Of a stretch of 64,000 nt of DNA, positions 2,394-32,257 are shown piece after piece. How positions within the stretch are numbered: position 1 is the first letter of the stretch; each line of letters begins with the position of its first letter. The stretch comes from an uncultured Methanomicrobiaceae archaeon (GTDB taxonomy: Archaea; Halobacteriota; Methanomicrobia; Methanomicrobiales; Methanoculleaceae). Location: NCBI GenBank assembly GCA_963826525.1, contig CAWGXH010000004.1, forward strand, positions 288,001-352,000, read 5' to 3'. The position numbers and the translations under genes were made by a program. Below the pieces are notes generated by a model. It was not told the origin of the DNA, searched no databases, and saw only the letters and a program-made list of their open reading frames with translations.

Positions 2394-2529
2394 TGGATAT
2401 CAGTTAACGGTCAACGCTCATGAACGCTCTGGTCACACCGGCAGAGGGCGGGTGCTCCCCTGCAGGCGGTCGCGGAAGAGAAAAGAGGAAAAACAGGGTG
2501 CTCCCGAACCTCCGCAGGGACCGGGGCGG

Positions 2530-2976: not shown

Positions 2977-2981
2977 CGCTG

Positions 2982-3924
2982 CTACACCATGATCCGGGTT
3001 TCTGAGACAGGTTTGATCCGTATCAATATGTAATTGCGCATTCGTGACGGGAGAACCTCGGCGACGTCCCCGACGGTCACGCCGTCGGCGATCTCGAGCG
3101 CACGGATATCGTCTGCGTAGGACTCGTACGGCAGTTTCACCCGGAGGCCCGAGAGTTGGGCGGTCACCGGCGTCGGATGGGTCAGGAAGGTCACCTCGTG
3201 GATCTTCTCCTCGAGGATCTCCATCAGCCGCGGCGGGAAGATCGAGAGCGGGTCCTTCGCGAGCTCGTCCCGCTTCGCATCGAGCGCCCGCGAGACCTCC
3301 TCGACCAGCTCGTCGAGTTTCCGGAGTTCCTCCGGCCGCTTGAACCGGTGCATAATCCGGCCGATATCGCCGACGTACCCCTCGACGGGCGGATCGGCGA
3401 TCCCCATCAGCGTCTCCCGGTCGGGAGCCCCGGTGAGGACGATCGGCACGTGGATACCCCGCCGGAGCACCGGAAACTTCTGCCGGATGCACTCCTCGAA
3501 GGTCCCGAGAACGTATACGGCGAGGTCGTGCTCGTTGATGACGTCACGCTCCTCGGCGTTCAGGTTGGCGATCCGCTTGCCGAACCCCCGTGCAAGCCCG
3601 ACCATGTTGGTCTTGGCACCGGCCCGGCGGAGATACTCGGCGATATCGCACGAGGTATGCGGGAGGTGATGGATCTCGAGACTCGGGCTGACGACGGCGA
3701 TCTCGGTGCCGACGAGCGGCGCCTCGGTGACCTCGCCTGCCAGGGGCTTTGCGATCCGGCGGATCAGGCTCGACGTCGTCCCGGGGCACGAAAGACTGGA
3801 GCACCACCTCCTGCGCCATCAGATGTTTCTGCACGATATACCCGCCGATATCGTCGATCAGGTCCACGATCTCGTCGTGCCGGTAGACGCCGCCCTTGTA
3901 GGTGATCGGGACGAGGGTCGTCAC
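2982..3924 (-). CDS. mmp7: Methanogenesis marker protein 7 (frameshift near 3770)
   Basis: YKGGVYRHDEIVDLIDDIGG N-terminus; MVGLARGFGKRIA; position in the marker operon. Confidence 0.85.
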
Positions 3925-13324: not shown

Positions 13325-14514
13325 TCGTCAAGTACTCCTCGTTCCCTGAAGATCTCCCGTGCCGCATCCTCGACGATCCCGGTCACATCCCGGAGCGGGA
13401 CGTCGAGTTCCCGGGCACAGAGGCGTGCCTGCTCGAACTCCGCCTTGAAGGACGAGACTTTTCCCGCAGACCACCCGCATTTGACGTCGATGGTATACGC
13501 CCTGCCCCGTATCGTGACCGTCACCGGCTGAACCGTCCGCTCGATGGTGAGCCGGTGGACAGCGGGCAGACACCGGATACCGAGCGTGCCGAGCTCCCGG
13601 ACCATGACGCCGGCCAGGTGATCGGTCGTCTCCCGGCGGCAGATCACCCGGATCAGGTAGCCGTTACGCCCTTTCTTCATCACCAGCGGGAGAGCGCTCG
13701 CGTCCCGTGCCCCTTCGTCCATCAGGCGGGAGAGCGTGTAGGCAAGGACCTCTCCCGTCACGTCGTCGACGTTGGTCTCGAGGATATCCACCCGGTCGTG
13801 GGGCGCAGGAGAGGCGTTCTCGAGGAGAAGTGTCCGAAGGACGTTCGGCGTTCCTGCGGGATTCCTCGTTCCCGCTCCGTATCCGACCGCCGTGATGGAG
13901 GCAGGCCCAATCTCTGCGGGGGAGAGGGTCGCAAACTCGGCGAGCAGCGCCGCTCCCGTGGGGGTGCAGAGTTCCCGCTCCTCCATCCCGATCGTCGTCT
14001 CGAGAGCCGATTCGCGGAGGACGGCTACCGTGGCCGGGGCGGGGATCGGGAAGGTTCCATGCGAGCCGACGGCAAACCCGCGGCCGAGCGCTATCGGAAG
14101 GACGGCCACGCCGTCGACCCCGAGTGACCAGAGTGCGGTGCATGCTCCGACAATATCGGCGATCGCGTCGTCGGCACCGACTTCGTGGAAGTGAGCCCCG
14201 TGGCCGTGAACACTCGCCTCGGCCCGGTGCAGGCGGAGAAAGACCCGCCGTGCCATCTCGCGGGCAGGTCCGGGTGCGACACTCTCGTCGAGGCGGGCGA
14301 GCACCTCCTCGAGCGTGCGGTGGTGAACCGGTGCATGCGTCTCGACCCGGACCGCCCCGATGCCGGCACGGTCTACCCGCCCGAATGTCGGTTCGGCCAC
14401 GACAGACTCCATCGCGGTTCTAACCAGAGTCTCATCCGCCCCCAGATCGAGCAGGGAGCCGATAATCATGTCGCCTGCCGCACCATGAAACGGATCTACG
14501 AGGAGGATCTTCAT
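13321..14514 (-). CDS. larC: Nickel insertion protein LarC (TIGR00299)
   Basis: [37 protein letters not shown]. Confidence 0.92.
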
Positions 14515-14527
14515 GCGTCGACAGTAC

Positions 14528-14535
14528 TTATAAAT
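14528..14535. promoter_or_regulatory. TATA box in the 45-bp divergent larC/cdc48 gap
   Basis: TTATAAAT about 25-30 bp upstream of the cdc48 ATG. Confidence 0.5.
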
Positions 14536-14559
14536 CCGAGAATATATGAATTAGAGGTA

Positions 14560-17004
14560 ATGCCCGAAATATACTTGAAAGTCGATAGTGCTTATCCGGA
14601 GGATCAGGGCGCGGGGAAGGCGCGGCTCGACCCTGATACCATGCTCCAGCTGAGGCTGAGCCCGGGTGACCTCATCGCCATCGAAGGGAAACGGCGGACC
14701 GTGGCGAAGGTCTGGCGTGCCATGGTGAACGACTGGCATCAGGGTAAAGTCCGCATCGATAACTTCACACGGCTCAATACCGGCGCCAGCATCGGCGATC
14801 GGGTCAGTATCAAGACGCTCGACGAGGAGGTCGAAGCAAAACGGGTGGTCCTCGCCCCGCCCGAAGACCTCCCGAAACAGCTGCCTATCAACTATAGCAG
14901 CGTCGTCAACAAACTGATAGACTTCCCGATCGTCAAGAACGACTCCGTACCGATTCAGGCCGGCCTCCCCTTTATGCAGCCCCAGCTCGTGGCGTTCAAG
15001 GCCGTCGTCGTCGAACCGGAGAATGCGGTGATCATCACCAAGAATACCAAGATAGAGTTCTCCGAGAAACCCGCAGCCGGATTCGAAGGGGCGAGGAAGA
15101 TCAGCTACGAGGATATCGGCGGCCTCAAGGACGAACTGCAGCGTGTCCGTGAGACGATCGAACTCCCCATGCGCCATCCCGAGATCTTTTCAAAGCTCGG
15201 CATAGAACCACCGAAAGGCGTCCTCCTTTACGGGCCTCCGGGGACCGGGAAGACCCTCATCGCGAAGGCCGTTGCGAGCGAGAGCGGCGCTCACTTCATC
15301 TCGATCGCAGGGCCAGAAGTGATCTCCAAGTACTACGGTGAGAGTGAGCAGCGGCTCCGGGAGGTCTTCGAGGACGCCCGCCAGCATGCTCCCGCCATCA
15401 TCTTCATCGACGAACTCGATTCCATCGCCCCACGGCGGGAAGAGGTGACCGGCGAGGTCGAGCGGCGTGTGGTCGCCCAGCTGCTCACGATGATGGACGG
15501 CCTCGAGGAGCGGGGACAGGTCGTGGTGATCGGAGCGACGAACCGCCTCGACGCCATCGACCCCGCTCTCAGGAGGCCCGGCAGGTTCGACCGTGAGATC
15601 GAGATCGGCGTGCCGCCGGAGGACGACCGGATCCAGGTTCTCCACATCCACACCCGCGGGATGCCGCTTGCACACGACGTGAATATCGACAGCATCGCCA
15701 AGCAGACCCACGGATTCGTCGGCGCCGATCTCGCGGCTCTCGCCAGGGAATCGGCCATAAAAGCGCTCAGGCGGTACCTCCCCGAGATCGACCTCGATGC
15801 GGAGGAGATCCCTCCCGAGGTGCTCGAGAAGATGGAGGTGCTCCCAAGCGACTTCCGGGACGCACTCCGGGATGTCGGCCCGAGCGCCATGCGTGAAGTG
15901 CTCCTCGAGGTGCCCCACACATCGTGGAGCGATGTCGGCGGGCTCGAAGAAGCGAAACTGGATATTCGCGAGGCCGTCGAGTACCCGCTTACGGAGCGGG
16001 AACGGTTCGAGGAGCTCGGTATCGAGCCACCGAAAGGCGTGCTTCTCTACGGGCCACCGGGAACCGGGAAGACCCTCATCGCAAAGGCCGTCGCCACCGA
16101 GAGCGGGGCGAACTTCGTCCCGGTCAGAGGCCCCCAGCTCCTCTCCAAGTGGGTCGGCGAGAGCGAGCGGGCAGTCCGCGAGATATTCAAGAAAGCCCGG
16201 CAGGTCGCCCCGTCGATCATCTTCTTCGACGAGATGGACGCACTGACACCGGCACGCGGCGGAGGCGGCGAATCGCACGTCATCGAGAGCGTCTTAAACC
16301 AGATTCTCACCGAGATCGACGGGCTCGAAGAGCTCCGCGGCGTCGTCGTCATGGGAGCGACGAACCGTCCGGATATGATCGATCCGGCACTCCTGCGGCC
16401 GGGCAGGTTCGACCGATTGGTCTACATCGGCGAACCGGGGCCTGCCGACCGGAACCGGATCCTCCGTATCCACACGCGCTACGTGCCTATCCAGGGCTCG
16501 ACGCTCGAGGAGATCGTCGATATGACCGACGGGTTCACCGAAAGCCAGATCGAGGACCTTATCGGGATGCTCGGCACCGGCAGACAGATCACCGTCGGCG
16601 ATCTTGCGCCCCATCTCGCCGGGCGTGCGGAAGCGGCGGTGGCAGGAGCAGATCCGGGGAACGGCGACGAGAGGCTGAAGCGGTCGGCACGGCGGAAGAA
16701 GATCGTCAGCCTGTTCGTCGAGCAGAAACTCGACCTCGTCGATCCCGTCCGCGATACGCTCATCACGGAGCTGGCCTCGAATACCAACGGGTTCGTCGGC
16801 TCCGACCTCGAAGCACTCGCCCGGGAGGCCGCCATGGCAGCTCTCCGCGAAGGGTCCCGCTTCGTCGAACCGAGGCACTTCACCGAGGCAACGGGGAAGG
16901 TTCACGCCACGATGAACGAGCGGCTGCGCCAGTATTACCAGAAGATCCAGCAGCACTTCAAGGGCGGGCTCCCAAAAGAGGTGCAGCCCCTCGAGTACCA
17001 GTAA
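14560..17004 (+). CDS. cdc48: CDC48/VAT family AAA ATPase with an insertion in the D2 helical region
   Basis: N domain, two GPPGTGKT Walker A motifs, ALRRPGRFD and [10 protein letters not shown]-terminal EYQ. Confidence 0.95.
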
Positions 17005-17020
17005 TCCATTCCCACCCCGC

Positions 17021-17030
17021 CTTTTTTTTC
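17021..17030 (+). terminator. Oligo-T archaeal terminator after cdc48
   Basis: T8 run 17 bp after the stop codon. Confidence 0.45.
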
Positions 17031-17121
17031 GATAATATATTTACCCGCTGATGGACAACTCTATACATTACGGATCAGTGATGCCGGACTGTCCTCGCAT
17101 CCCGACCGGAGGGGATACGCT

Positions 17122-18657
17122 ATGCCGAACTGTACCACATTTCTCGACGTCAACGCCTGCAACCGTTCAAAGACCGCTCTGATCGTCCCGTCCCGCGGAG
17201 AGGAGTACACGACGGTCCGGCTGCTCGATCAGGTGAACCGGATCGGAAACGGCCTCCGTGAGAGCGGCGTCGAGGCGGGAGATCGGGTCTGCATCTACCT
17301 CGACAGTTCGCCGGAGTATCTCATCAGTTACTTCGCCCTCTGGCGGATCGGCTGCGTCGCGGTGCCGACGAACCGCGTCTACCGGGAGTCCGAACTCCTC
17401 TACGCCGTCAGGGACGCCGGGGCTTCGGCGATCATCACCGATACGCCCGGCAGCGTCACGGCCGGGAAGATCCGAAAGGATGCCCCTCTGCTCCGGGAGG
17501 TGATCGCCGTCGGCGGCGGGGAGGGAGCGACGGCCTGGGCAGACCTTCAGGGATCGTCGCCCGTCCTCCGGCCGGCGCACTGCCGCTTCGACGACCTCTG
17601 CCAGATCCAGTATACGTCCGGGACGACCGGCAGGCCGAAAGGGGCGATGCTCACCCACGGCAACTGGATCGCGGCGATGGATGCCGAGCGGGAGGTGCTC
17701 GGCCTGACCGGGGACGATGTCTACCTCGGGATCTATCCAATGGGGCATGTCGGCATCAGCTGGGGGATCTCCGCCCTCCGGGCAGGGGGCACCTACGTCG
17801 TCATGGAGCGGTTCGACCTTGAACGCTACCTCGACCTTGCAGAACGCTACCGTGCCACTGTCATCGCCGGGATGCCGCCGGTTATCCACTCGCTGCTCCG
17901 GACGCCGCCCGGGACCGAGAGCAGACTTGCATCGGCACGGCTGATGATCAGCGGGGGAGGGCCGCTCGTGCCCACCGTCTGGAAGCCGTTCCACGAGCGG
18001 TTCGGCATCCCGATAGTCAACGCCTACGGTCTCTCGGAGACGATCGTCGTCGGGACGGGAACCGCCATCCGCCCCGAGCACTACACGACGGTAGATGAGT
18101 TCCGGAGTGTCGGGACGCCGGTCGGGTTCTCGGAGGTGCGGATCGTCGACGAAAGCAGTCCCGAGAAGGAACTTTCGCCGCATGAAATCGGCGAGATCGC
18201 CCTTCGCGGTCCGTCGGTTGCAGCGGGGTACTGGCAGATGCCCGAGGAGACGGCATCGGTCTTCCGCCCGGAAGGCTGGTTCCTCACCGGAGATATCGGC
18301 TACCTCGACGAGAGCGGGATGCTCTTCATCACCGACCGGAAGAAGGATATGATCGTCATGTCGGGATGGAAGATCTACCCGACGGAGGTGGAGAACGTCC
18401 TCCTCCAGCACCCGGGAATCCGGGACGCAGCGGTCTTCGGGTGCAGCGACGAACACCGGGGCGAGGTTCCGGTCGCGGCGGTCGTCCCGGCTGAGGGCGG
18501 CCTCACGCCCGAGGCGATCGTGGCATACGCAGAAGAGCGGCTTGCCGGGTATAAAGTGCCCAGGAGAATCCTCATGGTCGAGGAACTCCCCCGGGTGAAC
18601 GGCTGGAAGCTGATGCGAAAGGTTCTTCGGGAGCAGTTCTGCCCCGGCGCCATGTGA
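17122..18657 (+). CDS. AMP-dependent acyl-CoA synthetase (class I adenylate-forming)
   Basis: YTSGTTGRPKG, YGLSET, TGDIG, DRKKDMI. Confidence 0.9.
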   Translation: MPNCTTFLDVNACNRSKTALIVPSRGEEYTTVRLLDQVNRIGNGLRESGVEAGDRVCIYLDSSPEYLISYFALWRIGCVAVPTNRVYRESELLYAVRDAGASAIITDTPGSVTAGKIRKDAPLLREVIAVGGGEGATAWADLQGSSPVLRPAHCRFDDLCQIQYTSGTTGRPKGAMLTHGNWIAAMDAEREVLGLTGDDVYLGIYPMGHVGISWGISALRAGGTYVVMERFDLERYLDLAERYRATVIAGMPPVIHSLLRTPPGTESRLASARLMISGGGPLVPTVWKPFHERFGIPIVNAYGLSETIVVGTGTAIRPEHYTTVDEFRSVGTPVGFSEVRIVDESSPEKELSPHEIGEIALRGPSVAAGYWQMPEETASVFRPEGWFLTGDIGYLDESGMLFITDRKKDMIVMSGWKIYPTEVENVLLQHPGIRDAAVFGCSDEHRGEVPVAAVVPAEGGLTPEAIVAYAEERLAGYKVPRRILMVEELPRVNGWKLMRKVLREQFCPGAM

Positions 18658-18794
18658 CGGCGGAGAGCAGAAGCAGACTTTTCACAAACTTCGATCTTCG
18701 ATATCATCGGGCGAGAGGTTTCGCCCGGTATGCACATAGATATATATATCCTGACGGATATGATTCATAGTTTTTTTTCTGGGGGCATATATAC

Positions 18795-19380
18795 ATGACA
18801 GACACACAAAAACAGCCGACCGGCATTGCCGGCCTTGATCTCACCATCGAAGGAGGGTTTCCGGTCGGGACACGGATAATCGTCTATGGAACGGCGCTGA
18901 GCGGCCTTGAGCTGCTGGCGCAGCAGTTCTGGAAGGCCGGTGACGAGGAGTGCCGATACCTGATGCTCGATGCTGAGCCGACGGGAGGGATGCTCGATGC
19001 ACGGGAACTCTCGCTCAAGGAGCTCGCCGCAGCGATGCGGGGCAAGCGTATCGTCGTGGACTCGCTCTCGACGCTCATCCACAACTACGGTATCGATGCT
19101 GCTGCCGACTTTCTCACGAGCACCACCGAAGACCGCCTCCGGGAGGGATCGAACGTCCTCTTCCTTCTCTATCGGGGGAATCCATTCGCCGGTGGAAGAG
19201 ACCTTTCTCATGCGTGCGGCAGATGTGGTCATCGTCCTGCGGCAGGAACTGCACGGCAACGAGTTCGAACGGACCCTCTCCGTTGAGAAGATAAAAGGGA
19301 TGGCCGTGCCCCAACGGGCGGTGCCGTACCATATCACCGCGAAAGGGCTCGAACTCTCGACGACCACCAGGGTGATCTAA
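18795..19380 (+). CDS. Single-domain KaiC/RAD55-family protein with degenerate P-loop (frameshift near 19175)
   Basis: PTGIAGLDLTIEGGFPVG, IVVDSLS, ADVVIVL...RTLSVEKIKG...YHITAKGLE. Confidence 0.8.
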
Positions 19381-19383
19381 GCG

Positions 19384-20271
19384 TTACTCGGCCCGCAGAC
19401 TCGCCGGCCGCCGCGACCATATTTTTAAGCTTTTGAAAGGCGGCCTCGCGGGTCTGCATCCGGAGGCCGCAGTCGGGATCGACGAGCATTGTTTTTGCTC
19501 CGAAGAGATCGATCCCCCGCTCGATCCGCTCCCGGATCGTCGCCACGCTCTCGATGGCGGGACTGCTCGAGTCTACGCACCCGTAGCCGACCAGCCTTCC
19601 CCGGAGATCCTTCCCTGAGAGAACCTCGAGATTCCCGGGGTTTATCGCGAACTCAAAGTCGAAGACCGAGACGTTCGTCTTCAGGATATCGTCGATGACC
19701 GTCCCGACCCCCCCGCAGACGTGGAGGCAGGTCGGGATGCGGAGCGACGAGACGATAGCGTTCACCGCCTGGCGCCCGACGGCGAGATCCGCCGCACCCG
19801 TCGAGAGGATGGGCTCGTCGATCTGGAGAAGCGTCACGCCGGCAGCCTCGAGATTCCTCGCCTCGACGGCGAGCGCCTGGGCGAGGTCGAGCGCCAGTTC
19901 CTCGCGGTTCCGGTAAATCGGCGTATCGATCTTGAGGGCGTGGGCGAGGGTGGACGGACCGGTCAGGATTCCTTTGACCTTCGGATGCTTCGAGAGGGCG
20001 TACTTCGTATCCGCGACCGTGAGCGGTTTTGCCGGGGGGAGTACCCTGCCGACGACCGCCTGCCCTTTGATCCCGGGAAGCCGGGAGGTGAACGCCTGCA
20101 CCATATCCCCCCGGACCTGCCCGTCGGAGATGATGTCGATCCCGGCCGCGATCTGGTCGGCGACCGCGGTCTCGACGGCGTGCTTCAGCGGATCGAGGGA
20201 GAGGAAACCCTTCTTCCCGGAGACCGGATAGCTGCCGACCACCGTCGTCGGCAGCAGTTTGCTGATGAGGG

Positions 20272-20275
<4 letters not shown>
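19384..20275 (-). CDS. Core (C-terminal-only) methionine synthase, methylcobalamin:homocysteine methyltransferase type; probable frameshift near the stop
   Basis: TTVVGSYP, ISDGQVR, TGPSTLA, QIDEP, HVCG and PDCGLR zinc ligands. Confidence 0.88.
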
Positions 20276-21561
<1,286 letters not shown>

Positions 21562-21697
21562 ATCAAAACCTGAATACTATCTGTTCTGGTAGATATTTTG
21601 CTTTCCGTTCGGGCGGGGTGATGCGGGAGAGGGAACGTGCCGGAGAAAACCGGCTTCGGCGCCGGCATTTGGAAAAAGGAGAAGGATATCGCCAGAA

Positions 21698-22241
21698 TCA
21701 GACGAAGACTGCCGCAGAGATGACCGTCGTCCACTTGCCGTTCATGTCCCCTTCGGCTGCCTGACAGTTATGGGTCGTGTAGATGATCTTGCCGCTGGCT
21801 TTATAGATCTGTTCCCGCTCCTGCCATGCTTGGTCGGGATCGAACTCTATGCCGAGCGTCGTCGCGAGCATGGTCGCCGCAAGGTCCTCCGCATACTCGC
21901 CGCTTATCTCGGACGTCTCTCCATAGGCGTGGTGTTCCGACAGGTAACCATATTCGTTGCTCTCTTTCGGCATGGCATGCCCTATGGCGGCTGAGATCAG
22001 CCGGTTCGGTTCGTTCGTTTCATTCCGCGCCATCACGACGTAGACGATGGAACCCGGATGCAGCTCCAGGAGCCCCTCCTCCCGGTCAATCAGACTTGCA
22101 GTTCGGGGGGAAGATACTGGAGACATATACCAGATTGTACTTCTCGATGCCCGCCTGCCGGAGCGCGAGTTCAAATGAAGCCAGCTTATCCTTATGAACG
22201 CCTACACCTCTCGTGAAGAAACACTTGGTCGGAACAAACAT
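21698..22241 (-). CDS. pdaD: Pyruvoyl-dependent arginine decarboxylase (frameshift near 22095-22130)
   Basis: [14 protein letters not shown]...[25 protein letters not shown] (SS cleavage site) joined to YGYLSEHH...[10 protein letters not shown]. Confidence 0.9.
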
Positions 22242-22877
22242 TATCAATCTTCTTATCTTTAGAATTTTTTAATATTTTTGGTAATCCCAAACAGGATTTT
22301 AAAAAAGAGCGCAGAGATTAACCGAATCGTGGTTCTGGCCGCCTTTAGACACCGGCAGGGGATGACCGCCACGGGATAGCCACGAAACCCGGAGGTAAAA
22401 AGGAGGAGGAATGCCCGGAAAACTCCCAGTTTCGAGGCGGTAATCAAAAAAGGGGAGGTTTTCTGGCGGCTATCCCGACACTTTCGGATTCCGGGAGGAA
22501 AGCCGGTCGGAGCCCGGATCCTTCGGCAGGCGCACAACCCGTGCCGACCGGTGGCGGCACGACCCCCCCGGAACCGGGCGCACGGCACCCGGCAGGGATG
22601 TACATCTCCGGGATATCGCTCCGGCCTTGCGAAACCGGCCGCAGATCTTCCGATCGGCCGCCGTCGAAGATCGGGGGAACGCTTATATTCTTTGACTTCA
22701 GAGACCATGCGACCGACAGCGACCGTGGGCTCGTCACCACCGATGTAGATTCAGAGAGGCAGCTTCCACTGCCGATCGTTCCGGTACCGACAGGGTCTGC
22801 CGATACATGCCGCCCGGGTGCGGCGTCTCGACCGGCTCTTCGCTTTGGTCTGACCGATAAGAGAAGGAGAGGCAGAG

Positions 22878-23120
22878 ATGAGTTCATCTATCGAACCGGC
22901 AGCAGAAGTGGACTGCATCGGGCTCTACTGCCCGATGCCGATTGCCATGGCGAAAGAACAGATCGAGATGATCGGTATCGGTGAGATCTTAAAGGTGGAA
23001 GCGGACGATCCCGCAGCAGAGGAGGACATCAAGCGCTGGGCACACCGTGTCGGGCACGAGATGGTGGACTTCCAGAAAGAAGGCGGGATCATGACATTCT
23101 ACATTCGTCGGATGAAGTAA
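22878..23120 (+). CDS. TusA/SirA sulfur carrier 1 (canonical CPxP)
   Basis: VDCIGLYCPMP, ADDPAAEEDIKRWA. Confidence 0.9.
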   Translation: MSSSIEPAAEVDCIGLYCPMPIAMAKEQIEMIGIGEILKVEADDPAAEEDIKRWAHRVGHEMVDFQKEGGIMTFYIRRMK

Positions 23121-23134
23121 GGGGGCATTATACC

Positions 23135-23413
23135 GTGTATGCTGATTTAAACATAGACTGCATCGGCGCCTGCGAGGCACCGATGCTCCTGGTGAAAGAG
23201 GGGTTCGGAAGAATCGAGAAGGGGCAGGTGCTGCAGATCGAGACCGATAAACCCGGCCTTGTGCAGGATATCACCAGCTGGGCCGATAGTCAGGGGTTCT
23301 CCATCGAAGAGCAGGAGAAGCGTGCGGGCGTGACCACGCTGTACATCAGAAAGACTGCGGAATGGTCGGAAGAGCAGGAGAAGACCGTCCAGACAGCCGA
23401 GCAGCGGCGCTAG
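23135..23413 (+). CDS. TusA/SirA-like protein 2 (CEAP variant)
   Basis: IDCIGACEAP, GQVLQIETDKP...DITSWA. Confidence 0.8.
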   Translation: MYADLNIDCIGACEAPMLLVKEGFGRIEKGQVLQIETDKPGLVQDITSWADSQGFSIEEQEKRAGVTTLYIRKTAEWSEEQEKTVQTAEQRR

Positions 23414-23471
23414 CGAAGGAGGGGGAGTGCTCATTCAGCATTCCCATCCTTCCCGGAGGGGGTGATGATCT

Positions 23472-23705
23472 GTGCATGCCGACAGGTACGTTGACGGCAA
23501 GGGCTCTTTCTGCCAGGCACCGATATTCATGCTGAAAGAAGGGATGGACCCACTCGAACGGGGAGCCATCCTGAAAGTCGATCTCGATGCGGACGCAACG
23601 GAAGAGGACGTGAAGGTCTGGGCAAAGCGGATGGGGCACGAGATTGTGGAGACCGAGAAAGCCGCCGGCGTGACGACAATTTATATACGAAAGGCGGGAA
23701 CGTGA
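23472..23705 (+). CDS. TusA/SirA-like protein 3 (CQAP variant)
   Basis: VDGKGSFCQAP, EEDVKVWAKRMGHE. Confidence 0.8.
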   Translation: MHADRYVDGKGSFCQAPIFMLKEGMDPLERGAILKVDLDADATEEDVKVWAKRMGHEIVETEKAAGVTTIYIRKAGT

Positions 23706-23709
23706 GAAC

Positions 23710-24070
23710 ATGGCCAGACTTCTATACGTCCAGACCAGCGGAACCGATACTCCGGAACGGCTCTACGGTCCCCTTGTCCTCGGGATGACCGCCCGTGCAA
23801 TGGATATGGATGCGGACATCTTCTTCATGATCAAGGGGGTGACCGTCGTCAAGCGAGGAGAGGCGGAGAAGATCCGGATCGGCACCTTCCCGAGCCTTGC
23901 CGAGATGCTGAACCAGGCGATAAGCTTCGGGCGTCACGATCTACATCTGCGAACAGAGCACGCAGCTGCTCGGGCTTGAGCGGGGGGATTTCATACCGGA
24001 AGGGAAGATCGTCGGTGCCGCGACCTTAAACGACCTTGCGCTCGATGCAGACGCCGTCCTAACCTTTTAG
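23710..24070 (+). CDS. DsrE/F-like protein (frameshift near 23925)
   Basis: IFFMIKGVTVV, then GVTIYICEQS...KIVGAATLNDLALDADAVLTF* in the shifted frame. Confidence 0.82.
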
Positions 24071-24079
24071 AGCGGGCTT

Positions 24080-25232
24080 ATGGAGAGAATCTACCTCGAC
24101 CATGCAGCGGCGATGCCGGTCGATCCGCGAGTCCTCGATGCCGCTCTGCCGTACCTGACCGAGAAGGTCGGGAACCCGTCGAGTCTCTACCACGAAGGGC
24201 TTACGGCAAAGTCTGCCATCGAGGAGGCACGCGGCAGAGTCGCCGACCTGATCAATGCAGAGGATACCCAGTCGATCATCTTCACGAGCGGCGCCACCGA
24301 GTCGAACAACATCGCGGTCCGCGGCACTGCTCTCCGGAACATCCGCACCGGAAAGAAGGTTGCGGCGAGCACGATAGAGCACATCTCCGTCATAAACCCT
24401 GCAAAAGATCTCCAGAAGAGCGGTTTTGAGTTCGCCCGGATACCGGTCGACACGTTGGGAGTCGTCGATCTCGAAGCTTTGAGCGGGATCGTGACGCCCG
24501 AGACGACGGTGACCTCGATCATGTACGCGAACAACGAGATCGGCACCGTCGAACCTATTCCGGAGATCGCCGGGATCGTGCACGACCGGGGCGTATACCT
24601 CCATGTCGATGCGGCGGATGCCGCCGGGCGGATCCCCATCGACGTGCAGCGGGACGGCATCGATCTCCTCACGCTCTCGGCAAATCGAGCTCGGCGGGCC
24701 TGAGGGAACCGGCGCCCTGTACATACGCCCGGGCGTCCGGGAGCAGCCGGTGGTCCTCGGCGGGGGACAGGAGCGGGGGCTCCGGTCGGGCACCGAGAAC
24801 CTCTTCGGCATCGTCGGGATGGGGGAGGCCGCACGGATCGCCGGAGCCGATATGCAGGGGGAGAGCAGGCGGCTTGCCGGGATACGGGATCGGCTTATCG
24901 AGGGGATACTGACCATCGACGAGGCCTACCTGACCGGCCACCCTACCGAGCGGCTCCCGCACCACGCCAGTTTCCGCTTCTCCCGGATAGAGGGGGAGAG
25001 CATTCAGCTCGCCATGGACATGTACGGTATCGCGGTCGCCACCGGCTCGGCCTGCACCTCCCGGACGCTTGAAGCCTCCCACGTGCTTCTCGCGATAGGC
25101 CTTCGGCACGAGGAGGCGCACGGCTCCATGATCGCGACCCTGGGCCGTTCGAACACCAGTGAGCAGGTATCGAGAATCGTGGACGCGGCAGGAGAAACAG
25201 TTAAACGACTGCGCGCTATTACACCGTTATGA
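24080..25232 (+). CDS. iscS: IscS/NifS-family cysteine desulfurase homologue, apparently lacking the PLP lysine (frameshift near 24685)
   Basis: YLDHAA, GNPSS, FTSGATESNN, EHISV, ANNEIG, RSGTEN, ATGSACTS. Confidence 0.88.
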
Positions 25233-25248
25233 CCGGGGTGACTCGCAG

Positions 25249-25635
25249 ATGGCAGAACAGATAGGATACAGCCAGAAGGTGATGGAGCACTTCATGAACC
25301 CGCACAACGTCGGGGTCATCGAGAATGCGGACGGCTACGGCAAGGTGGGCAATCCTGTCTGCGGCGATATCATGGAGATCTTCATCAAGGTGAAGGACGA
25401 CCGGATCGAGGATATCAAGTTCCGCACGTTCGGCTGCGGGTCGGCCATCGCCACGAGCAGTATGGTCACCGACATGGCCAGGGGCAAGACCCTCGACGAG
25501 GCGATGGCCATCACCCGAAGCGACGTGGCCACCGAGCTCGAGGGTCTGCCGCCGCGGAAGATGCACTGTTCGAACCTCGCGGCGGATGCACTTCACGAGG
25601 CGATTAAGGACTACCGGAGCCGGCAGGGAGCGTAG
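25249..25635 (+). CDS. iscU: Fe-S cluster scaffold IscU/NifU
   Basis: GNPVCGD, FGCGSAIA, KMHCSNLA. Confidence 0.95.
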   Translation: MAEQIGYSQKVMEHFMNPHNVGVIENADGYGKVGNPVCGDIMEIFIKVKDDRIEDIKFRTFGCGSAIATSSMVTDMARGKTLDEAMAITRSDVATELEGLPPRKMHCSNLAADALHEAIKDYRSRQGA

Positions 25636-25647
25636 AGCAGTTCGTGC

Positions 25648-26548
25648 TCACCGGCCGAAGATCCGGAGAATATTCTTCGCGAGATCGACGCTCTTGCCCC
25701 GGTTGACCATCAGGGTATCGAGGCGGAGCGTGCCGTCGATCTCCACCGGGTCGCGGATGTCCTGCACGAAGAGATCGAGGAAGTCTTCGTAGAGCCGGAT
25801 TGTTCCGGCCGAGGTCGGTTCACACCCGAACGCCCGCATCAGCGCCGCAGCAGGGCCGCTGACCGGCGCATCCCCGATGAACGGGCTGATCGCAACCACA
25901 CGCTGCTTTTTGAGCGCTTCACGAACACCTGCACACTCGAGGATGGGAGATATACTGGTCACGGGATTTGAAGGCCCGATGATCACGCCGTCGCTCTCCT
26001 CGATCGCAGAGAGCACTTCGGGCGTCGCCACCGGGGGTTCCCGGAACCGCCGAACGACGCCGGAGATCGGCACGGTGCCCCGGTGCTTCACCCAGTACTC
26101 CTGGAAGTGGATGCAGCTATCGTCGGTCTCGACGTACGTCGTCACTTCCGAATCGGTCATCGGAAGGACCGTCGCCTGCACGCCGAGATGCTCTGCGAGC
26201 GCCTTTGTCGAGGCGGTCAGGGTCATGCCCGAACGGGAGCTGCTCCCCCCGTGCCGCATGCACCGCCCGGTCGAGGTCCCCGACCGCGATGAACTCGTCG
26301 ACGCCGAGCTGCTGCAGGTACTCGTGGGTGATAAAGGTGTCACCGCGGATACCCCACCATTTCGTCGTGTCGAGGGTCTCCGCAAAGAGGTAGAGTACGG
26401 TATCGATATCGGGAGAGAGATGGTTTCCCGTGAGCCACATATCCTCGGCCGTGTTGACGACCACGCTGATCTCGCGTTCATCCAGAATTTCCTGAATGCC
26501 GCGAAGCAGTTTCGGCGTTCCCGTTCCGCCCGAGAGGAACGTAATCAT
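25648..26548 (-). CDS. cofD: 2-phospho-L-lactate transferase (frameshift near 26245)
   Basis: [42 protein letters not shown]. Confidence 0.9.
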
Positions 26549-26638
26549 GTAATCATAGGGGTAAATAGGCCTTCCCTAATGAACGTTGTCAAATACGCCG
26601 AGGTAACCGCCCGCATTATCGTCGATCTCCCGGTGCCT

Positions 26639-27548
26639 TCACCGTTTTGCGCGCCTGATGACCGCCATGAGGTCCCAGGCAAGCGACTCGGCGTTCCGAT
26701 CACGCCACACACGGGTCTCGAGGCGAAGCGATCCCTCGACGACCTCGGGGTCGCGGATATCCTGCACGAAGACGTCCGCGACGTCCCGGTAGAGAGACCA
26801 TGCACCCGCCGAGGTCGGTTCTTCCCCGGCAGCCCGCATCAGTGCCGCTTCCGTCGGCAGGGGAGGGACATCTCCCCGGAACGGGGAGACCGCAATGACG
26901 AACCGGTCCTGGAGCGCTTCCCGGATACCGGCGCAGTCGAGGATGGGCAGGATGCTCCGGACAGGATTGTCGGGACCGATGATCACGGCATCGCTCTCGT
27001 CCATCGCGGCGAGAACCTCGGGCGTTGCCGCCGGCTCCTCTTCGCCGGCACGGACGATCCGCCGGATTGCAAGATTCTCGAGGTCCGATCGGCAGTACCT
27101 CGAGGATCTGCATGGCTCCGGCATCCGCCTCCACGAGAGTGGTGATCTCGGTATCGGTCATCGGAAGAATCCGTGCCGCGAGACCAAGAGCAGTGCTCTG
27201 GAGCCGTGTCGCCTCCGTAGGCGTCATACCCGACCGGAGCATCTCTCCCCGGGCGATCTGGACGGCGCGAACTTTATCCCCTATCGCGAGCCACTCCTCC
27301 CCTGCCACCCGCTTAAGGAACCGATGTGTCGAGAAGGTGTCTCCTTTGATCCCCTGCCAGGTAGCGGTATTTAAGATCCCGGCAAAGAGGAAGAGGAGCG
27401 TCTCGATATCAGGGGCGTGGTGGTTGCCGCTGATCCAGAGATCGTCGGCGGTGTTGGCGACGACCGTGATCTCGTGGTCGTAGAGGATCTGCCGGGTGCC
27501 CCGTATCAGCCTCGGCGTTCCCGTTCCGCCCGAGAGGAAGGTGATCAT
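26639..27548 (-). CDS. CofD paralogue, divergent (frameshift near 27095)
   Basis: Same [12 protein letters not shown] start, but motifs changed to APDIET, GPDNP and LPTEA. Confidence 0.82.
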
Positions 27549-27702
27549 GACACGGGTATATTTCTCAGTGCTAGATGAAGAAGGTTGATCGGGGCAGCGG
27601 CGGAGCGGATCGGCATGAGGGGGAGCAGCGACCGATGTACAACGAGCAACATAACGCGCCGGGCGGGAGAAACTGATTAATGTGCAGTCAGCACACGCTC
27701 AC

Positions 27703-28939
27703 ATGAAAGCGATGAAGATCATCAAGGATCCGGTGCACGGCTACGTGGAGGTGGACACGCTCGCACTTCGCCTGCTCGACGCCGGAGAGGTGCAGCGCCT
27801 CCGCCACATATCACAGCTCGGATTCGCGAATCTCGTCTATCCGGGAGCGAACCACACCCGTTTCGAGCACTCGCTCGGGACGATGCACCTCGCTGCCCTG
27901 CTCTCCCGGCAGGCTCGACCTCACCCCGAACGAACGGCAGCTCGTCACCGTCGCCGCTCTTCTCCATGATATCGGCCATGGCCCGTTCTCGCACGTCATC
28001 GAACCTATCATGGAGACCTGCGCGGGAAGAAGCCATCACGAGGTTTCCAATCTGCTGAAGACCGGCCTGATAGCCGAGACCCTCGGGGACGAAGGGATCA
28101 GCCCCGCTGAGGTCTGCAGTGTCATCAGCGGCCGGCATCGCCTTGCGGGGATCATCCACGGGAGCCTCGATGTCGACCGGATGGACTACCTGATGCGGGA
28201 CGCACACTATACGGGCGTTCCCTATGGGACGGTGGACGCGCACCGCCTGATCCGGAGCATCATTCTCACCGACTCGGGGGTGGGGCTCGAAGAGAACGGC
28301 ATCAACGCGGCGGAATCGCTCCTGATAGCCCGGACGCTGATGCGTCCCGCGGTCTACTTCCACCACGTCAGCCGGATCGCAACGAGCATGTTCGTCCTGG
28401 CTGTCATGGAACACCTGGAGCAGGTTCCCGGAACCGATCCGGGTGTGATGGTGCGGATGGACGACGCCGCCTGCATGGAGATGCTGAAGGCGTCGCAGAG
28501 CCCGGTTGCCCGCGACCTCGCTGCCAGGGTCTACAACCGCAATCTCTACAAACGGGCGCTCTACGTCGGGGAAGACCGGGTGAACCTGGCCGCCGTCCTG
28601 ACCGATCTGAGCCATGCCAAAGAGCGGGCGATCGCCCGGGAGATCGCCGGGGCCGCCGGCATCGAGGAGTGGGAGGTGATCGTCGACATTCCTCCGCTCC
28701 CGGGCGAGATGTCGATGGAGGTCAGGGTCAGGAGCAGCCATACCCTGGTGGAGCTCGAAGAGGTCTCCCCGCTGATCAACACCTTGAACGACACGAGAAG
28801 GCAGCAGTGGCGCCTCGGGGTCTACGCACCGCCGCAGCACCGGTCGGCCGTCGAACAGGCGGCCGTCGAGGTGCTCCGGGTCAAGCGGCCGACCAAACAG
28901 GATAAACTCATGATTGCATACCAGAAAGAGGGTTTATGA
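27703..28939 (+). CDS. HD-domain phosphohydrolase (SAMHD1/YwfO-like; frameshift near 27915)
   Basis: [52 protein letters not shown]. Confidence 0.88.
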
Positions 28940-29491
28940 CGAAGGAATATGTCATCGGGGTTACGGGGGCAAGCGGCGTCATCTACGCCCGCCGCATCCT
29001 CGAGGTGCTCTGCGAGAAGGCGACGGTTCATATCGTCATCTCGGACGTCGCCCGCCGGATAGCGGAGATCGAGCGGGTCGACCTTAGCCGGGTTCGACGC
29101 AATCTATGCCGAGAACAGCGATCTTGCCGCGGATATCGCCAGCGGGTCGTTCCGGTACGACGGGATGGCAATCGTGCCCTGCAGCATGAAGACGCTTGCA
29201 GCGGTCAGCAACGGATTTGCCGATAACCTCATCACCCGTGCGGCGGACGTCTGCCTGAAGGAGAACCGGCGGTGCATCCTTCTTCTCCGGGAGATGCCGC
29301 TCTCCCGGATACACTTGAAGAACATGCTTGCGGCCGACGAAGCGGGTGCAACGGTCATGGTGGCAAGCCCGCCGTTCTACCAGAACCCGGAGACGATAGA
29401 CGACCTCGTCGATATGGTCGCCGCACGAGTGCTGGACCACCTGGGTGTCGAGCACCGGCTCGGCGTGCGATGGAGCGGATACGATGCGTGA
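28936..29491 (+). CDS. ubiX: Flavin prenyltransferase UbiX (frameshift near 29090)
   Basis: GVTGASG, IASGS, PCSMKTLA, RAADVCLKE, REMP. Confidence 0.92.
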
Positions 29492-30725
29492 ATTCATTGA
29501 GATGATGCGAAGGAAAGGGTGTGTCGAGGATATCCGCGAGCCGTGTTCGTCGGTCTTCGACGCCCCGAGACTATCAAAAGAGAACGATGCCATACTCTTC
29601 TTCCACGACGTGGACGGGCACCGGGCGGTCATGAACCTGATGGCCGACCGCTCCGCGCTGGCAGCGGCGCTCGGCGTCGAGGAACGAAGCCTCGTCCCGC
29701 ACCTGGCGAAGGCGACCTACTCCGGAAGAGTGGTCAACGCAGGACCGCTTACCGGAGGCGAACCCGCGGACCTCTCCCGCCTTCCGATCATGAAGCACTT
29801 CCCCGGGGATGCCGGCCGCTACATCACCGCGGGGATCGTCTTCTCCCGCGAAGGGGCGGTCGAGAACGGTTCGATCCACCGGATGCTGGTGATCGACAAT
29901 AAGAGGGTCGCCGCCCGCCTCGTCGAGGGGCGCCACACCCACACGATGCTCAAAGCCGCCCTTGCCCGCGGGGAGCGCCTCCCCGTGGCGGTCACCATCG
30001 GCACCCATCCCCTGGTGACGTTCGCAGGCTGCACCCGGGTCCCGGAAGGAAAGGAACTCGCCTACGCCGCAGAGCTCCTGGGCGGGGAACTCACCGTATG
30101 GGAGTGCAAAAACGGCGTTCTGGTTCCGGATGCCGAGATCGTGCTCGAAGGGTATATTGGGGCGGAACGTGCCGCCGAAGGGCCTTTCGTCGACATCACC
30201 GGAACCTACGACCCGGTCAGGCAGCAGCCGGTGATCGAGTTCACCGATATGTACCTCAAAGCCGATCCGGTCTATCACGGCATCCTCCCCGCCGGGAACG
30301 AGCACAAACTCCTGATGGGAGCGCCGTACGAACCGAAGATCTACCGGGCGGTCGGCGAGGTGACGACGGTGCGGGACGTGCTGCTCACGAAGGGCGGGGC
30401 GGGCTATCTCCACGCCGTCGTCCAGATCCGGAAGAATACCCAGGGAGACGCGAAGAACGCCATCATGGCAGCCTTCGCCGCCCATACCTCGCTCAAGCAC
30501 GTCGTCGTGGTCGACGAGGATATCGACATCCACGACCCGGTCGACGTCGAGTTCGCCATCGCCACCCGCGTCCGGGGGGATACCGATCTGATGGTGATCA
30601 CGGGAGTGCGTGGTTCGTCCCTCGATCCGATGCGGCTTGGCGACGGGACGAATGTCAAGATCGGTCTTGACGCCACGATGGTAATGGGGAAAGAGGACGA
30701 GTTTGTGCGGGCAGGATGGGAGTGA
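29484..30725 (+). CDS. UbiD-family decarboxylase, probable trans-anhydromevalonate 5-phosphate decarboxylase
   Basis: DAGRYIT, GSIHRM, EGPFVDITG, VVDEDID, SSLDP; adjacent to ubiX and acnX. Confidence 0.85.
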   Translation: MREFIEMMRRKGCVEDIREPCSSVFDAPRLSKENDAILFFHDVDGHRAVMNLMADRSALAAALGVEERSLVPHLAKATYSGRVVNAGPLTGGEPADLSRLPIMKHFPGDAGRYITAGIVFSREGAVENGSIHRMLVIDNKRVAARLVEGRHTHTMLKAALARGERLPVAVTIGTHPLVTFAGCTRVPEGKELAYAAELLGGELTVWECKNGVLVPDAEIVLEGYIGAERAAEGPFVDITGTYDPVRQQPVIEFTDMYLKADPVYHGILPAGNEHKLLMGAPYEPKIYRAVGEVTTVRDVLLTKGGAGYLHAVVQIRKNTQGDAKNAIMAAFAAHTSLKHVVVVDEDIDIHDPVDVEFAIATRVRGDTDLMVITGVRGSSLDPMRLGDGTNVKIGLDATMVMGKEDEFVRAGWE

Positions 30726-30729
30726 CGCG

Positions 30730-31893
30730 ATGTATCTCGATACAGAGGATGAAAAGATCTTAAGCGGGGAGTTTGGGGAGACCCGGCAGAAGATGATGGA
30801 GATCCTGGTCGCTCTCGGCCGGGTGTATAATGCGGAGAAGCTGGTCTCGATCGCGAGCGCCCAGGTGAGCGGCGCATCGTACAAGACGATCGGAAAGTGG
30901 GGCCTCGAGTGGCTCTCGAGCCTGGACGCCCGGGTAGCGGTGCCGACAGTCTTGAACCCAATCGGGATGCCCCGGGAGGAGTGGCGCGACCTCGCCGGGA
31001 TCACGCCCGAGTTTGCCCACCAGCAGGAGGCGGTGCTTGCCGCGTATCACCGTCTCGGGATCAGGATGGAGTGCACCTGCACGCCCTACTACCTGCAGCG
31101 GACCGAATACGGCGAGCACCTCGCGTGGTCGGAGTCGAGCGCCGTTGCATATGCAAACTCGGTCATCGGTGCCCGCACGAACCGAGAGGGGGGGCCGAGC
31201 GCTCTTGCGGCGGCGATCATCGGGAAGACGCCCTTCTACGGGCTGCATCTCGTTGCAAACCGCCAGCCAGGCGTCGTCGTCGAGGTGGAGGCGGGCGACT
31301 CGCCGCGGGCCGACCACTACGGCGCAATCGGCTACCTCGCCGGAAAGGAGGTCGGGAACCGGATTCCGTTCATCACCGGCATCAGGCCGGGCCGCGACCA
31401 GCTCAAGGCGCTCGGGGCGGCGATGGCGGCAACCGGAGCGGTCGCCCTCTATCATGTCGAGAAGATCACCCCCGAGACGAGGGTCTTTCCCTTCGAGACA
31501 GAGGGGCTTGAGCGGATAACCGTCGGGCTGGAGGATATCGAGAACCTCTTTGCAACGATGGACGTCGATGCGGTCGCGATCGGGTGTCCGCACTGCTCGC
31601 CGGGCGAACTCCAGGAGATAGCCGGGCTCCTCGCCGGCAAACGGACGACAAAGCCCCTGCTCGTCTTCGTCGCCCGCACGGTCGCCCGGGAGAATCAGGG
31701 CCTCGTCACCGCCATCGAGCGGAGCGGTGCGAAGGTCGTCCCCGACACCTGCATGGTCGTCTCGCCGGCGATGGATCACTATAAGGCGATCATGGTCGAT
31801 TCAGGGAAGGCCTTCGCGTATGTCCCCGGGATGTGCGGGGCGCTCGCCAGGCTCGGGACGCGAAAAGAGTGCATCGAGGTCGCGACCTCGTAA
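30730..31893 (+). CDS. Aconitase X large subunit, probable phosphomevalonate dehydratase large subunit
   Basis: SGASYKTIG, CTCTPY, WSESSAV, ARTNREGG, IGCPH, DTCMVVSP, DSGKA. Confidence 0.88.
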   Translation: MYLDTEDEKILSGEFGETRQKMMEILVALGRVYNAEKLVSIASAQVSGASYKTIGKWGLEWLSSLDARVAVPTVLNPIGMPREEWRDLAGITPEFAHQQEAVLAAYHRLGIRMECTCTPYYLQRTEYGEHLAWSESSAVAYANSVIGARTNREGGPSALAAAIIGKTPFYGLHLVANRQPGVVVEVEAGDSPRADHYGAIGYLAGKEVGNRIPFITGIRPGRDQLKALGAAMAATGAVALYHVEKITPETRVFPFETEGLERITVGLEDIENLFATMDVDAVAIGCPHCSPGELQEIAGLLAGKRTTKPLLVFVARTVARENQGLVTAIERSGAKVVPDTCMVVSPAMDHYKAIMVDSGKAFAYVPGMCGALARLGTRKECIEVATS

Positions 31894-31996
31894 GATCGGG
31901 CATTCTTCCGCCATATCTTTTTTCAGCCGGTCACCGTTCTTCGTCCGGTAACCTTCATCACCCCGGACGCCGTATCGGACGCCGGGAGAAAGAAGT

Positions 31997-32257
31997 ATGC
32001 CACGAACGGACGTCACCGCCATGCAACGGAACCGGGATATCGAAGGGCTGATCCGGACACTCGGGGATCCGAACGAGAGCGTCCGGGAGGCCGCAGCGAC
32101 GGCGCTCGGGGCAGTCGGCGATGCGCGGGCGATCGAACCGCTGACGCGGGCGAAGTTCTTCGACGAACGTCCGGAGGTCAGGCGGGCCGCGTCGGCAGCG
32201 CACGTCTGGCTCTCCGAGCGGCTCCGAGCGGAGCGGATGCTGAAAGGCGGGCGGTAA
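31997..32257 (+). CDS. Small HEAT-repeat (PBS lyase-like) protein
   Basis: RDIEGLIRTLGDPNESVREAAATALG. Confidence 0.78.
   Translation: MPRTDVTAMQRNRDIEGLIRTLGDPNESVREAAATALGAVGDARAIEPLTRAKFFDERPEVRRAASAAHVWLSERLRAERMLKGGR

Follow-up and report, generated by a model that had tools for sequence, protein, structure and literature searches.

How is an iron-sulfur (Fe-S) scaffold supplied with sulfur when the IscS protein encoded beside it has no Schiff-base lysine? The question was raised by an operon at 22878–25635 in DNA of an uncultured Methanomicrobiaceae archaeon (assembly GCA_963826525.1, here G000). The stretch analysed, called the window, comprises 64,000 nt of contig CAWGXH010000004.1 (positions 288,001–352,000). 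The operon encodes three TusA proteins, a DsrE-family protein, an IscS homologue without the lysine (IscS*) and IscU. In this study, the linkage of TusA and DsrE with the lysine-less IscS clade, and with that clade only, was shown to be very tight and old. The operon may be an accessory Fe-S assembly module in which a protein persulfide relay replaces the pyridoxal phosphate (PLP) chemistry of IscS. The chances of this reading are put at about even.

Sulfur supply to the Fe-S scaffolds of anaerobic archaea is an acknowledged gap (PMC8918507; this and the other papers are cited here for their accessible portions). Through the linkage, TusA and a DsrE3-like protein become candidate sulfur donors for the putatively dead IscS throughout the sampled part of its clade. 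Dead IscS, the carrier families and the contact between E. coli IscS and TusA (PMC2854127) were already known. The element that appears to be new is a fixed four-gene unit, TusA-DsrE-IscS*-IscU, that is restricted to the lysine-less clade. No published description of this cassette was found, and linkage of TusA or DsrE with a lysine-less IscS was not found in the searchable full-text literature, subscription papers excepted.

The six genes follow one another on the + strand, separated by 14, 58, 4, 9 and 16 bp. The original prediction had described six same-strand genes with gaps of 4–58 bp, namely three TusA, a DsrE, an IscS homologue and an intact IscU, and this description was confirmed by reading frames, Pfam and NCBIfam. 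Both motifs that it had quoted, YICEQS in DsrE and GSACTS in IscS, were read in the window. The genes are as follows.

22878..23120, + strand: TusA-1, 80 aa, GLYCPMPIAM with the canonical Cys-Pro-x-Pro (CPMP); PF01206, E 1e-22
23135..23413, + strand: TusA-2, 92 aa, GTG start, CEAP (Cys-x-x-Pro), C-terminal acidic tail; PF01206, E 6e-12
23472..23705, + strand: TusA-3, 77 aa, GTG start, CQAP (Cys-x-x-Pro); PF01206, E 2e-15
23710..24070, + strand: DsrE3-like carrier, 119 aa in relatives, YICEQS; PF02635 on two halves (profile 2-67 and 71-116)
24080..25232, + strand: IscS*, 383 aa in the same-genus genome G001, GSACTS; PF00266 (Aminotran_5) on two halves (profile 1-199 and 204-370)
25249..25635, + strand: IscU, 128 aa; PF01592 (NifU_N), E 1e-49; TIGR03419, 212 bits against a cut-off of 187.9

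The lysine site and the frameshifts

The DsrE and IscS genes are each split across two frames in the window. Comparison with G001, which is about 90% identical in nucleotides over 3.6 kb, reduces each split to one extra base, at 23922 in DsrE and at 24687 in IscS, and the latter sits exactly at the lysine site. The original prediction had carried a caveat on sequence errors, which stated half of the matter, as both genes are split. The remaining coding insertions and deletions relative to G001 cancel within a few bases. The public run X1 yielded a 243-nt contig (24589–24832) that is otherwise identical to the window and lacks base 24687; this contig does not reach 23922. Relatives about 90% identical in runs X2 and X4 lack both extra bases. 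Over the 19 kb collinear with G001, eight uncompensated single +1 insertions were found (19179, 22096, 23922, 24687, 26235, 27098, 27913 and 29086), together with a net +2 at 19384. All nine insertions fall within long G001 reading frames between 19179 and 29086. Unrelated genes are affected, among them arginine decarboxylase (22096), two CofD genes (26235 and 27098) and an HD-domain gene (27913). The flanks (14353–19178 and 29087–32257) have no such insertion relative to G001.

Removal of the extra base gives Asn-Gln at the window site, the same pair as in G001 (LSGNQLGGPEG). The cassette was found in only 13 of 40 relatives, and the 13 IscS* orthologues share 59–94% identity with the window protein over the N-terminal half. 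All 13 are intact, with open frames of 386–388 codons encoding 382–384 aa. At the His-Lys site they carry Asn-Gln (eight, including G001), Asn-Pro (one) or Asn-Asp (four), and all 13 retain the loop Cys, which is Cys325 in G001 numbering. PF00266 matched the two halves of IscS* with E 1e-50 and 6e-18, which identified a class-V IscS/NifS fold. NifS was the top NCBIfam model, with each half scoring under the full-length cut-off.

The X1 contig, the X2 and X4 relatives, the insertions in unrelated genes and the 13 intact orthologues together lead to the conclusion that the extra bases at 23922 and 24687 are assembly errors. The region 19179–29086 is a patch of poor consensus and not of gene decay, which fits the completeness of G000 (87.6% by marker genes, contamination 5.3%). 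Findings of a "broken gene" in this region therefore deserve distrust. A pseudogene cluster was considered and rejected on the X1 contig and on the spread of insertions over unrelated genes. Genuine breakage of DsrE and IscS in this strain, with the operon in decay, is very improbable. The window sequence does show a broken frame in both genes, and the cassette is dispensable, being not found in 27/40 relatives and having lost IscS* in G010. Decay would not account for an otherwise identical contig without base 24687, or for nine +1-type insertions within 10 kb that hit unrelated genes such as arginine decarboxylase and CofD. The incompleteness and contamination of G000 also speak for a faulty consensus. 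No further lesions were present, and the N-terminal half of IscS* (query residues 1-202) is 94% identical to the intact G001 orthologue.

As judged from these sequences, the absence of the lysine in the window's IscS is real, since neither the intact orthologues nor the X1 contig without the extra base has His-Lys. A frameshift artefact as the cause of the missing lysine was rejected on the same evidence. The original prediction of an IscS without the Schiff-base lysine but with the mobile-loop Cys agreed with the orthologues and with the window sequence after removal of the shift. It had also named a polished sequence that restores His-Lys, together with desulfurase activity, as a refutation. 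His-Lys is not restored; the orthologues and the read-derived contig give Asn-Gln, Asn-Pro or Asn-Asp.

Linkage of the carriers with the lysine-less clade

The gene neighbourhoods were surveyed from the IscS side and from the DsrE side. For the former, one genome per species was scanned with an alignment of lysine-less proteins, and the best 80 of 589 confirmed loci were analysed, comprising 23 lysine-less and 57 lysine-bearing loci. TusA was found in 22/23 lysine-less loci and TusA together with DsrE in 21/23, upstream within 1.5 kb and on the same strand. Near the lysine-bearing loci, TusA (0/57) and DsrE (0/57) were both absent, and IscU was present in 51/57. The archaeal labels of the lysine-less loci were Methanoculleus, Methanomicrobiaceae, Methanocellales, Thermoplasmatota, Bathyarchaeia, Thorarchaeota and a Thaumarchaeota bin. 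Three Deltaproteobacteria bins, a WOR-3 bin and unclassified bacteria made up the other labels.

For the DsrE side, 400 sampled genomes of the phylum were used. Matches were obtained in 72/401 genomes, with 57 strong matches outside G000, of which 50 were inspected. An IscS gene directly followed DsrE in 45/50. The His-Lys site was in view in 43 of these 45, and lysine occurred in none (0/43). Lysine-less IscS and TusA/DsrE thus co-occur in both search directions, which answers the synteny survey that the original prediction had called for.

Two genomes of a neighbouring genus, G010 (locus L104) and G011 (L105), have kept TusA-DsrE-IscU and lost IscS*. An IscS remnant of 99 aa lies between DsrE and IscU in G010, and none was detectable in G011. 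As TusA-DsrE-IscU outlives IscS* in these loci, TusA and DsrE are tied to IscU itself.

The phylogeny of 126 unique IscS proteins was investigated with FastTree (LG+gamma). The 68 lysine-less proteins formed one clade with an SH-like support of 0.998, and none of the 58 lysine-bearing proteins fell inside it. The clade included the G001 orthologue and a near-identical relative of 4EB5, a structure of Archaeoglobus fulgidus IscS2. A single clade indicates that the association was one old event followed by long retention, and not a series of repeated gains. Members diverge down to 46–54% identity with the G001 protein, and gene order and carrier cysteines still hold. The evidence lies in this retention despite divergence.

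The active site was compared at eight positions, read after alignment of all proteins to one profile. The site labels K206, Gln183 and Arg354 follow E. coli IscS numbering. All lysine-bearing loci (57/57) retain Gln, Lys and Arg. In the lysine-less loci of the same set, Gln is replaced by Ala or Asp (23/23) and Arg by Val, Ile, Gln or Glu (22/22 with the site in view). The stacking His, the Ser and the loop Cys are retained, and the Asp is kept or replaced by Asn. Among 64 unique full-length IscS* proteins from cassettes, Asn stands for His in 64/64, Lys occurs in 0/64 and the mobile-loop Cys is present in 64/64. By these residues, the catalytic site is given up as a whole and part of the cofactor pocket remains. 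The partly kept pocket agrees with the pyridoxamine phosphate (PMP) in the A. fulgidus protein (PMC8918507). IscS* is therefore predicted to be catalytically dead; inactivity is known only for the A. fulgidus protein. The signature (Asn-Asp or Asn-Gln for His-Lys, Gln to Ala or Asp, and Arg to Val, Ile, Gln or Glu) could stop pipelines from annotating such genes as cysteine desulfurases.

All three TusA proteins of the window exceeded the Pfam cut-off of PF01206. TusA-1 is the orthologue of the single TusA in 55/67 cassette loci. Extra copies of the TusA-2 or TusA-3 type occurred in 12/67 loci only, all of them from the window's family (f1) or labelled Methanoculleus. The three TusA genes that had been predicted are thus present in the window, and they are not a trait of the module, as most cassette loci have one. 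The Cys-Pro-x-Pro type was found in 65 of the 85 unique cassette TusA proteins; the Cys, and the Pro at the third residue after it, are invariant (85/85).

The single Cys of DsrE (Cys80) is invariant in 74/74 unique cassette proteins. The nearest structure by sequence was 3MC3 (E 6e-14, 31% identity), with YICEQS aligned to YVCVQS. A DsrE model built from 71 sequences had a mean pLDDT of 97.5 and a TM-score of 0.89 to 3MC3. Its further fold matches, all below 3MC3, were 3PNX, YchN, 2QS7, DsrEFH and TusBCD (2D1P). The NCBIfam DsrE2 model gave 20 bits against a cut-off of 210. The protein of 3MC3 is termed DsrE3A in PMC11094781. According to the same source, archaeal DsrE3A is an established thiosulfonate carrier, and related DsrE3B, DsrE3C and TusA proteins hand sulfur to partners. 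No TusA other than the three of the operon, and no second DsrE, was found in G000. A 215-aa fusion of DsrE and TusA (P0001) was not counted, since its ends resemble a mis-called or frameshifted reading frame. A search for fused DsrE gave no DsrE-IscS fusion, which is weak evidence as a negative.

The ligand residues of the window IscU, three Cys, Asp and His, are intact in the translation. They are kept in 48–49 of 49 cassette IscU proteins.

Known systems and the source of the sulfur

The top match of the G001 orthologue in the PDB was A. fulgidus IscS2 (4EB5, 4EB7 and 4HVK; E 2e-125, 51% identity in the alignment). The link to A. fulgidus IscS drawn in the original prediction was exact, as the window gene belongs to the same lysine-less clade. 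The A. fulgidus protein has Asp199 in place of the lysine, binds PMP and shows no desulfurase activity, and it gives a Cys ligand to a [2Fe-2S] cluster on IscU (PMC8918507). Sulfide was suggested there as the sulfur source, and assembly without a desulfurase was called an open question. Methanosarcina acetivorans IscS1 likewise has no lysine (PMC7585200). Three genomes of family f14 were tried for an IscS1 of this type and gave only lysine-bearing IscS. The window operon resembles A. fulgidus IscS2-IscU in the Asn at the His site, the missing Lys, the retained loop Cys and the IscU gene directly downstream; a D199K variant of the A. fulgidus protein is known (4R5F). It differs in having Asn-Gln instead of Asn-Asp and in its three TusA genes. 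In the papers cited here, the A. fulgidus pair is described as a two-protein system: TusA does not appear in the accessible portion of PMC8918507, nor TusA or DsrE in that of PMC7585200.

For the IscS* of G194 at locus L133, one difference from the crystallised A. fulgidus IscS2 was counted in a 382-residue alignment. DsrE lies directly before this gene and IscU after it. A paralogous copy in the same genome (L129) has the full TusA-DsrE-IscS*-IscU set. Donor candidates are thus also present in a genome whose IscS is one residue from the crystallised protein, by which the open question becomes testable with tractable proteins. A second DsrE-family gene (L129:2-385, PF13686) was observed near the L129 cassette, and a SepCysS paralogue about 2.4 kb beyond its IscU.

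The E. coli relay IscS-TusA-TusBCD-TusE-MnmA uses the same IscS, TusA and DsrE-fold families and carries persulfide on single cysteines, and TusBCD was among the fold matches of the window DsrE. In E. coli, however, IscS is an active donor and tRNA is the acceptor. The window DsrE is nearest to homotrimeric DsrE3A, in contrast to the TusBCD heterohexamer. Transfer from E. coli IscS to TusA and an IscS-TusA crystal complex are established (PMC2854127; PMC13066941). Since IscS* would be unable to make persulfide, any flow should run towards IscS* or past it to IscU. The relays of DsrE3A/B/C and TusA (Metallosphaera cuprina; sHdr) resemble the cassette in adjacent DsrE3-like and TusA genes and in aligned active-site Cys residues. 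They feed the dissimilatory sulfur-oxidising sHdr and carry thiosulfonate or sulfane sulfur (PMC11094781), whereas the partner in the window cassette is an Fe-S scaffold, in strict anaerobes with no sulfur-oxidising pathway in view.

In a 2026 review, archaeal MIS is described as a desulfurase and a scaffold with no additional components (PMC13066941). The cassette shares with MisS-MisU the pair of IscS-type and IscU-type proteins, the archaeal occurrence and the lack of chaperones. It falls outside the MIS definition, as it has a putatively dead MisS and two fixed carrier families. In SufS-SufE and SufS-SufU, a dedicated persulfide carrier likewise stands between source and scaffold, but these carriers belong to unrelated families and SufS has desulfurase activity. 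SUF is a stress system, and some cassette lineages also have stress-linked neighbours.

In the relay proposed here, the three TusA paralogues and the DsrE3-like carrier would take sulfane sulfur on their single conserved cysteines. The sulfur would then pass to the mobile-loop Cys of a dead IscS* docked on IscU, be reduced on IscU and be built into a [2Fe-2S] cluster. The proposal includes a variant in which sulfur goes straight to IscU, made plausible by the loci of G010 and G011. Which proteins touch, which way the sulfur flows and where the sulfane sulfur originates are predictions from sequence. The sulfane sulfur could come from polysulfide or oxidised sulfide, from damaged clusters or, in G000, from the canonical IscS.

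Candidate electron donors recur among the cassettes. In five loci (L021, L024, L136, L144 and L145), TusA is directly preceded by a separate TrxR-like gene of 304 aa with a CATC motif. A 461-aa protein of G245 (L160:96-1478, the same locus as L127) joins IscU to a full TrxR-like domain without Cys-x-x-Cys. A 115-aa NAD(P)-binding-like tail was found at the C-terminus of IscU in seven loci (L033:4643-5437, L038:4622-5446, L032, L040, L139, L141 and L143). Only two weak or distant TrxR-like matches occurred near the 57 lysine-bearing loci. The TrxR-like domains are suggestive of a repeatedly recruited electron supply; they are suggestive only, because both a persulfide route and the reductive coupling of clusters need electrons.

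The context of 26 cassette loci was investigated by Pfam on 112 flanking reading frames. Oxygen- or iron-handling genes were same-strand neighbours in 9/26 loci (L020, L022, L024, L026, L027, L031, L136, L144 and L145). They encoded ferritin, one to three rubrerythrins, 1-Cys peroxiredoxin, desulfoferrodoxin, flavodiiron protein, hemerythrin, DJ-1 and hybrid-cluster protein. No such genes were found by Pfam among the flanking frames of the remaining 17/26 loci. Given the patchy distribution among relatives and the oxygen-defence and iron neighbours in other lineages, the module is more likely a conditional system for stress or sulfur limitation than a housekeeping one.

Canonical desulfurases occur in some of the genomes that hold the cassette. 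G000 also encodes a canonical IscS (LSAHKFYGPKG, with the loop Cys; L146) with its own IscU, and one relative has a His-Lys paralogue that likewise has its own IscU (L015). Two more lysine-bearing class-V proteins of G000 are a SufS-like gene and an 834-codon open frame. The latter (L147, G000:C4:1263500-1270000, ORF 1283-3784) has an IscS-like domain with His-Lys and no loop motif of the ACS or ACT type, and may be a fusion protein or a read-through. G245 and G247 hold both canonical and lysine-less IscS. In L122 (G284), a lysine-bearing IscS lies divergently, directly upstream of TusA-DsrE-IscS*-IscU. No canonical desulfurase was found by PF00266 search and NCBIfam naming in G194, G172 and G156 (genus g71, each about 99% complete). 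The PF00266 matches of these three genomes were IscS* copies, an aminotransferase, two SepCysS and an MfnA-like decarboxylase. TusA and DsrE would therefore not be loadable by a canonical desulfurase in these genomes.

Several points weigh against the relay. The lysine-less clade has one origin, so related genomes are not independent and the linkage counts are not independent trials. Among the lysine-less loci, L032 has TusA only and L035 has neither carrier in view (IscU lies upstream, with 708 bp visible); the bacterial labels on some contigs may be due to mis-binning. On the DsrE side, L120 and L121 have DsrE alone with uninformative neighbours, and L136 has TusA-DsrE without IscS or IscU. 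At L133, the search gave no TusA, and an in-frame start is missing ahead of the conserved N-terminus of DsrE; this copy of the cassette may be degraded. The sole TusA and DsrE proteins of G000 could serve other acceptors, such as tRNA or molybdenum cofactor. Recruitment of TrxR-like domains is not specific to persulfide, as stated above. The original prediction had called the relay cysteine-independent and its persulfide sulfide-derived. The first term was not borne out for the window organism, with its canonical lysine-bearing IscS-IscU and SufS-like protein: canonical systems coexist with the module, which is not essential, and cysteine may remain the ultimate sulfur source. The second was not supported, since the window operon encodes no oxidant or sulfide-activating enzyme and nothing in it explains the oxidation of sulfide to persulfide.

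Two other explanations of the cassette have to be weighed. IscS*-IscU could use free sulfide, with IscS* lending only a Cys ligand, while TusA and DsrE have another job. This job could be the buffering or removal of reactive sulfane sulfur near the scaffold, or the supply of other thiolation pathways. Such a division of labour is unlikely, but it matches the published A. fulgidus proposal of sulfide as source and IscS as ligand only (PMC8918507, PMC7585200). DsrE4-type proteins have been proposed to detoxify reactive sulfur species (PMC11094781), and the stress-defence neighbours in 9/26 loci point in the same direction. Other pathways would have to use these same proteins, since no TusA or DsrE gene was found in G000 outside the operon. 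What free sulfide leaves unexplained is the occurrence of TusA and DsrE with the lysine-less clade only, never with the 57 lysine-bearing loci, and the survival of TusA-DsrE-IscU after the loss of IscS* in G010 and G011. The recurrent reductase modules would also have less of a role.

Alternatively, in this organism a canonical IscS or the SufS-like protein could make persulfide from cysteine and pass it through TusA and DsrE to the dead IscS*-IscU, so that the module would be cysteine-dependent. G000 has the necessary enzymes, namely the canonical IscS with its IscU and the two further lysine-bearing class-V proteins. The coexistence of both kinds in G245 and G247, the divergent lysine-bearing IscS beside the cassette in L122 and the known E. 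coli transfer and complex (PMC2854127; PMC13066941) are consistent with such a borrowed source. However, the three g71 genomes have the cassette, and the PF00266 search gave no canonical desulfurase for any of them. A borrowed source therefore cannot be the general mechanism, and this explanation is regarded as rather improbable.

A more specific form of the persulfide relay was also considered, in which the cassette serves sulfane-sulfur salvage and Fe-S repair of strict anaerobes as part of an oxygen-stress response. Oxygen would turn free or cluster sulfide into S0, which the DsrE3-like protein and TusA would capture as persulfide. The persulfide would go to the loop Cys of the dead IscS, now only a docking adaptor on IscU. 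A TrxR-like flavoprotein, which some lineages have as a fusion with IscU or as a neighbour of TusA, would then give the electrons that convert the persulfide to cluster sulfide. This salvage role is tentative and is held to be doubtful. If it is true, cysteine desulfurases and free sulfide would be joined by a fifth way to feed an Fe-S scaffold, and the inactive IscS of A. fulgidus would be explained.

Probable promoter and surroundings of the operon

The spacer upstream of the operon is unusually long (630 bp, 22248–22877). It contains one promoter-like feature.

22678..22690, + strand: TATA-box-like motif AACGCTTATATTC, unique in the window; its core lies within the sole fully invariant block of an alignment of upstream regions from four genomes

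This motif, which lies about 190 nt before the first ATG, is the probable archaeal promoter of the operon, as judged from its sequence and conservation. The spacer also contains a leader of about 165–190 nt that is well conserved relative to G001. A regulatory leader within the 630-bp spacer is possible. Rfam gave no match at E up to 1 over 21500–26500, and thus no known riboswitch or leader in the spacer. A scan for bacterial promoters and terminators, which is ill-suited to archaea, gave nothing above shuffled sequences.

The neighbours of the operon in the window are AspRS and arginine decarboxylase upstream and CofD downstream, with no oxygen- or iron-handling genes among them. CofD (2-phospho-L-lactate transferase) is present as tandem paralogues on the minus strand (25648–26548 and 26639–27548), which share about 66% DNA identity. 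Each of the two genes is interrupted by one extra base (26235 and 27098, respectively). The Methanoculleus locus L016 has a single CofD within the part in view.

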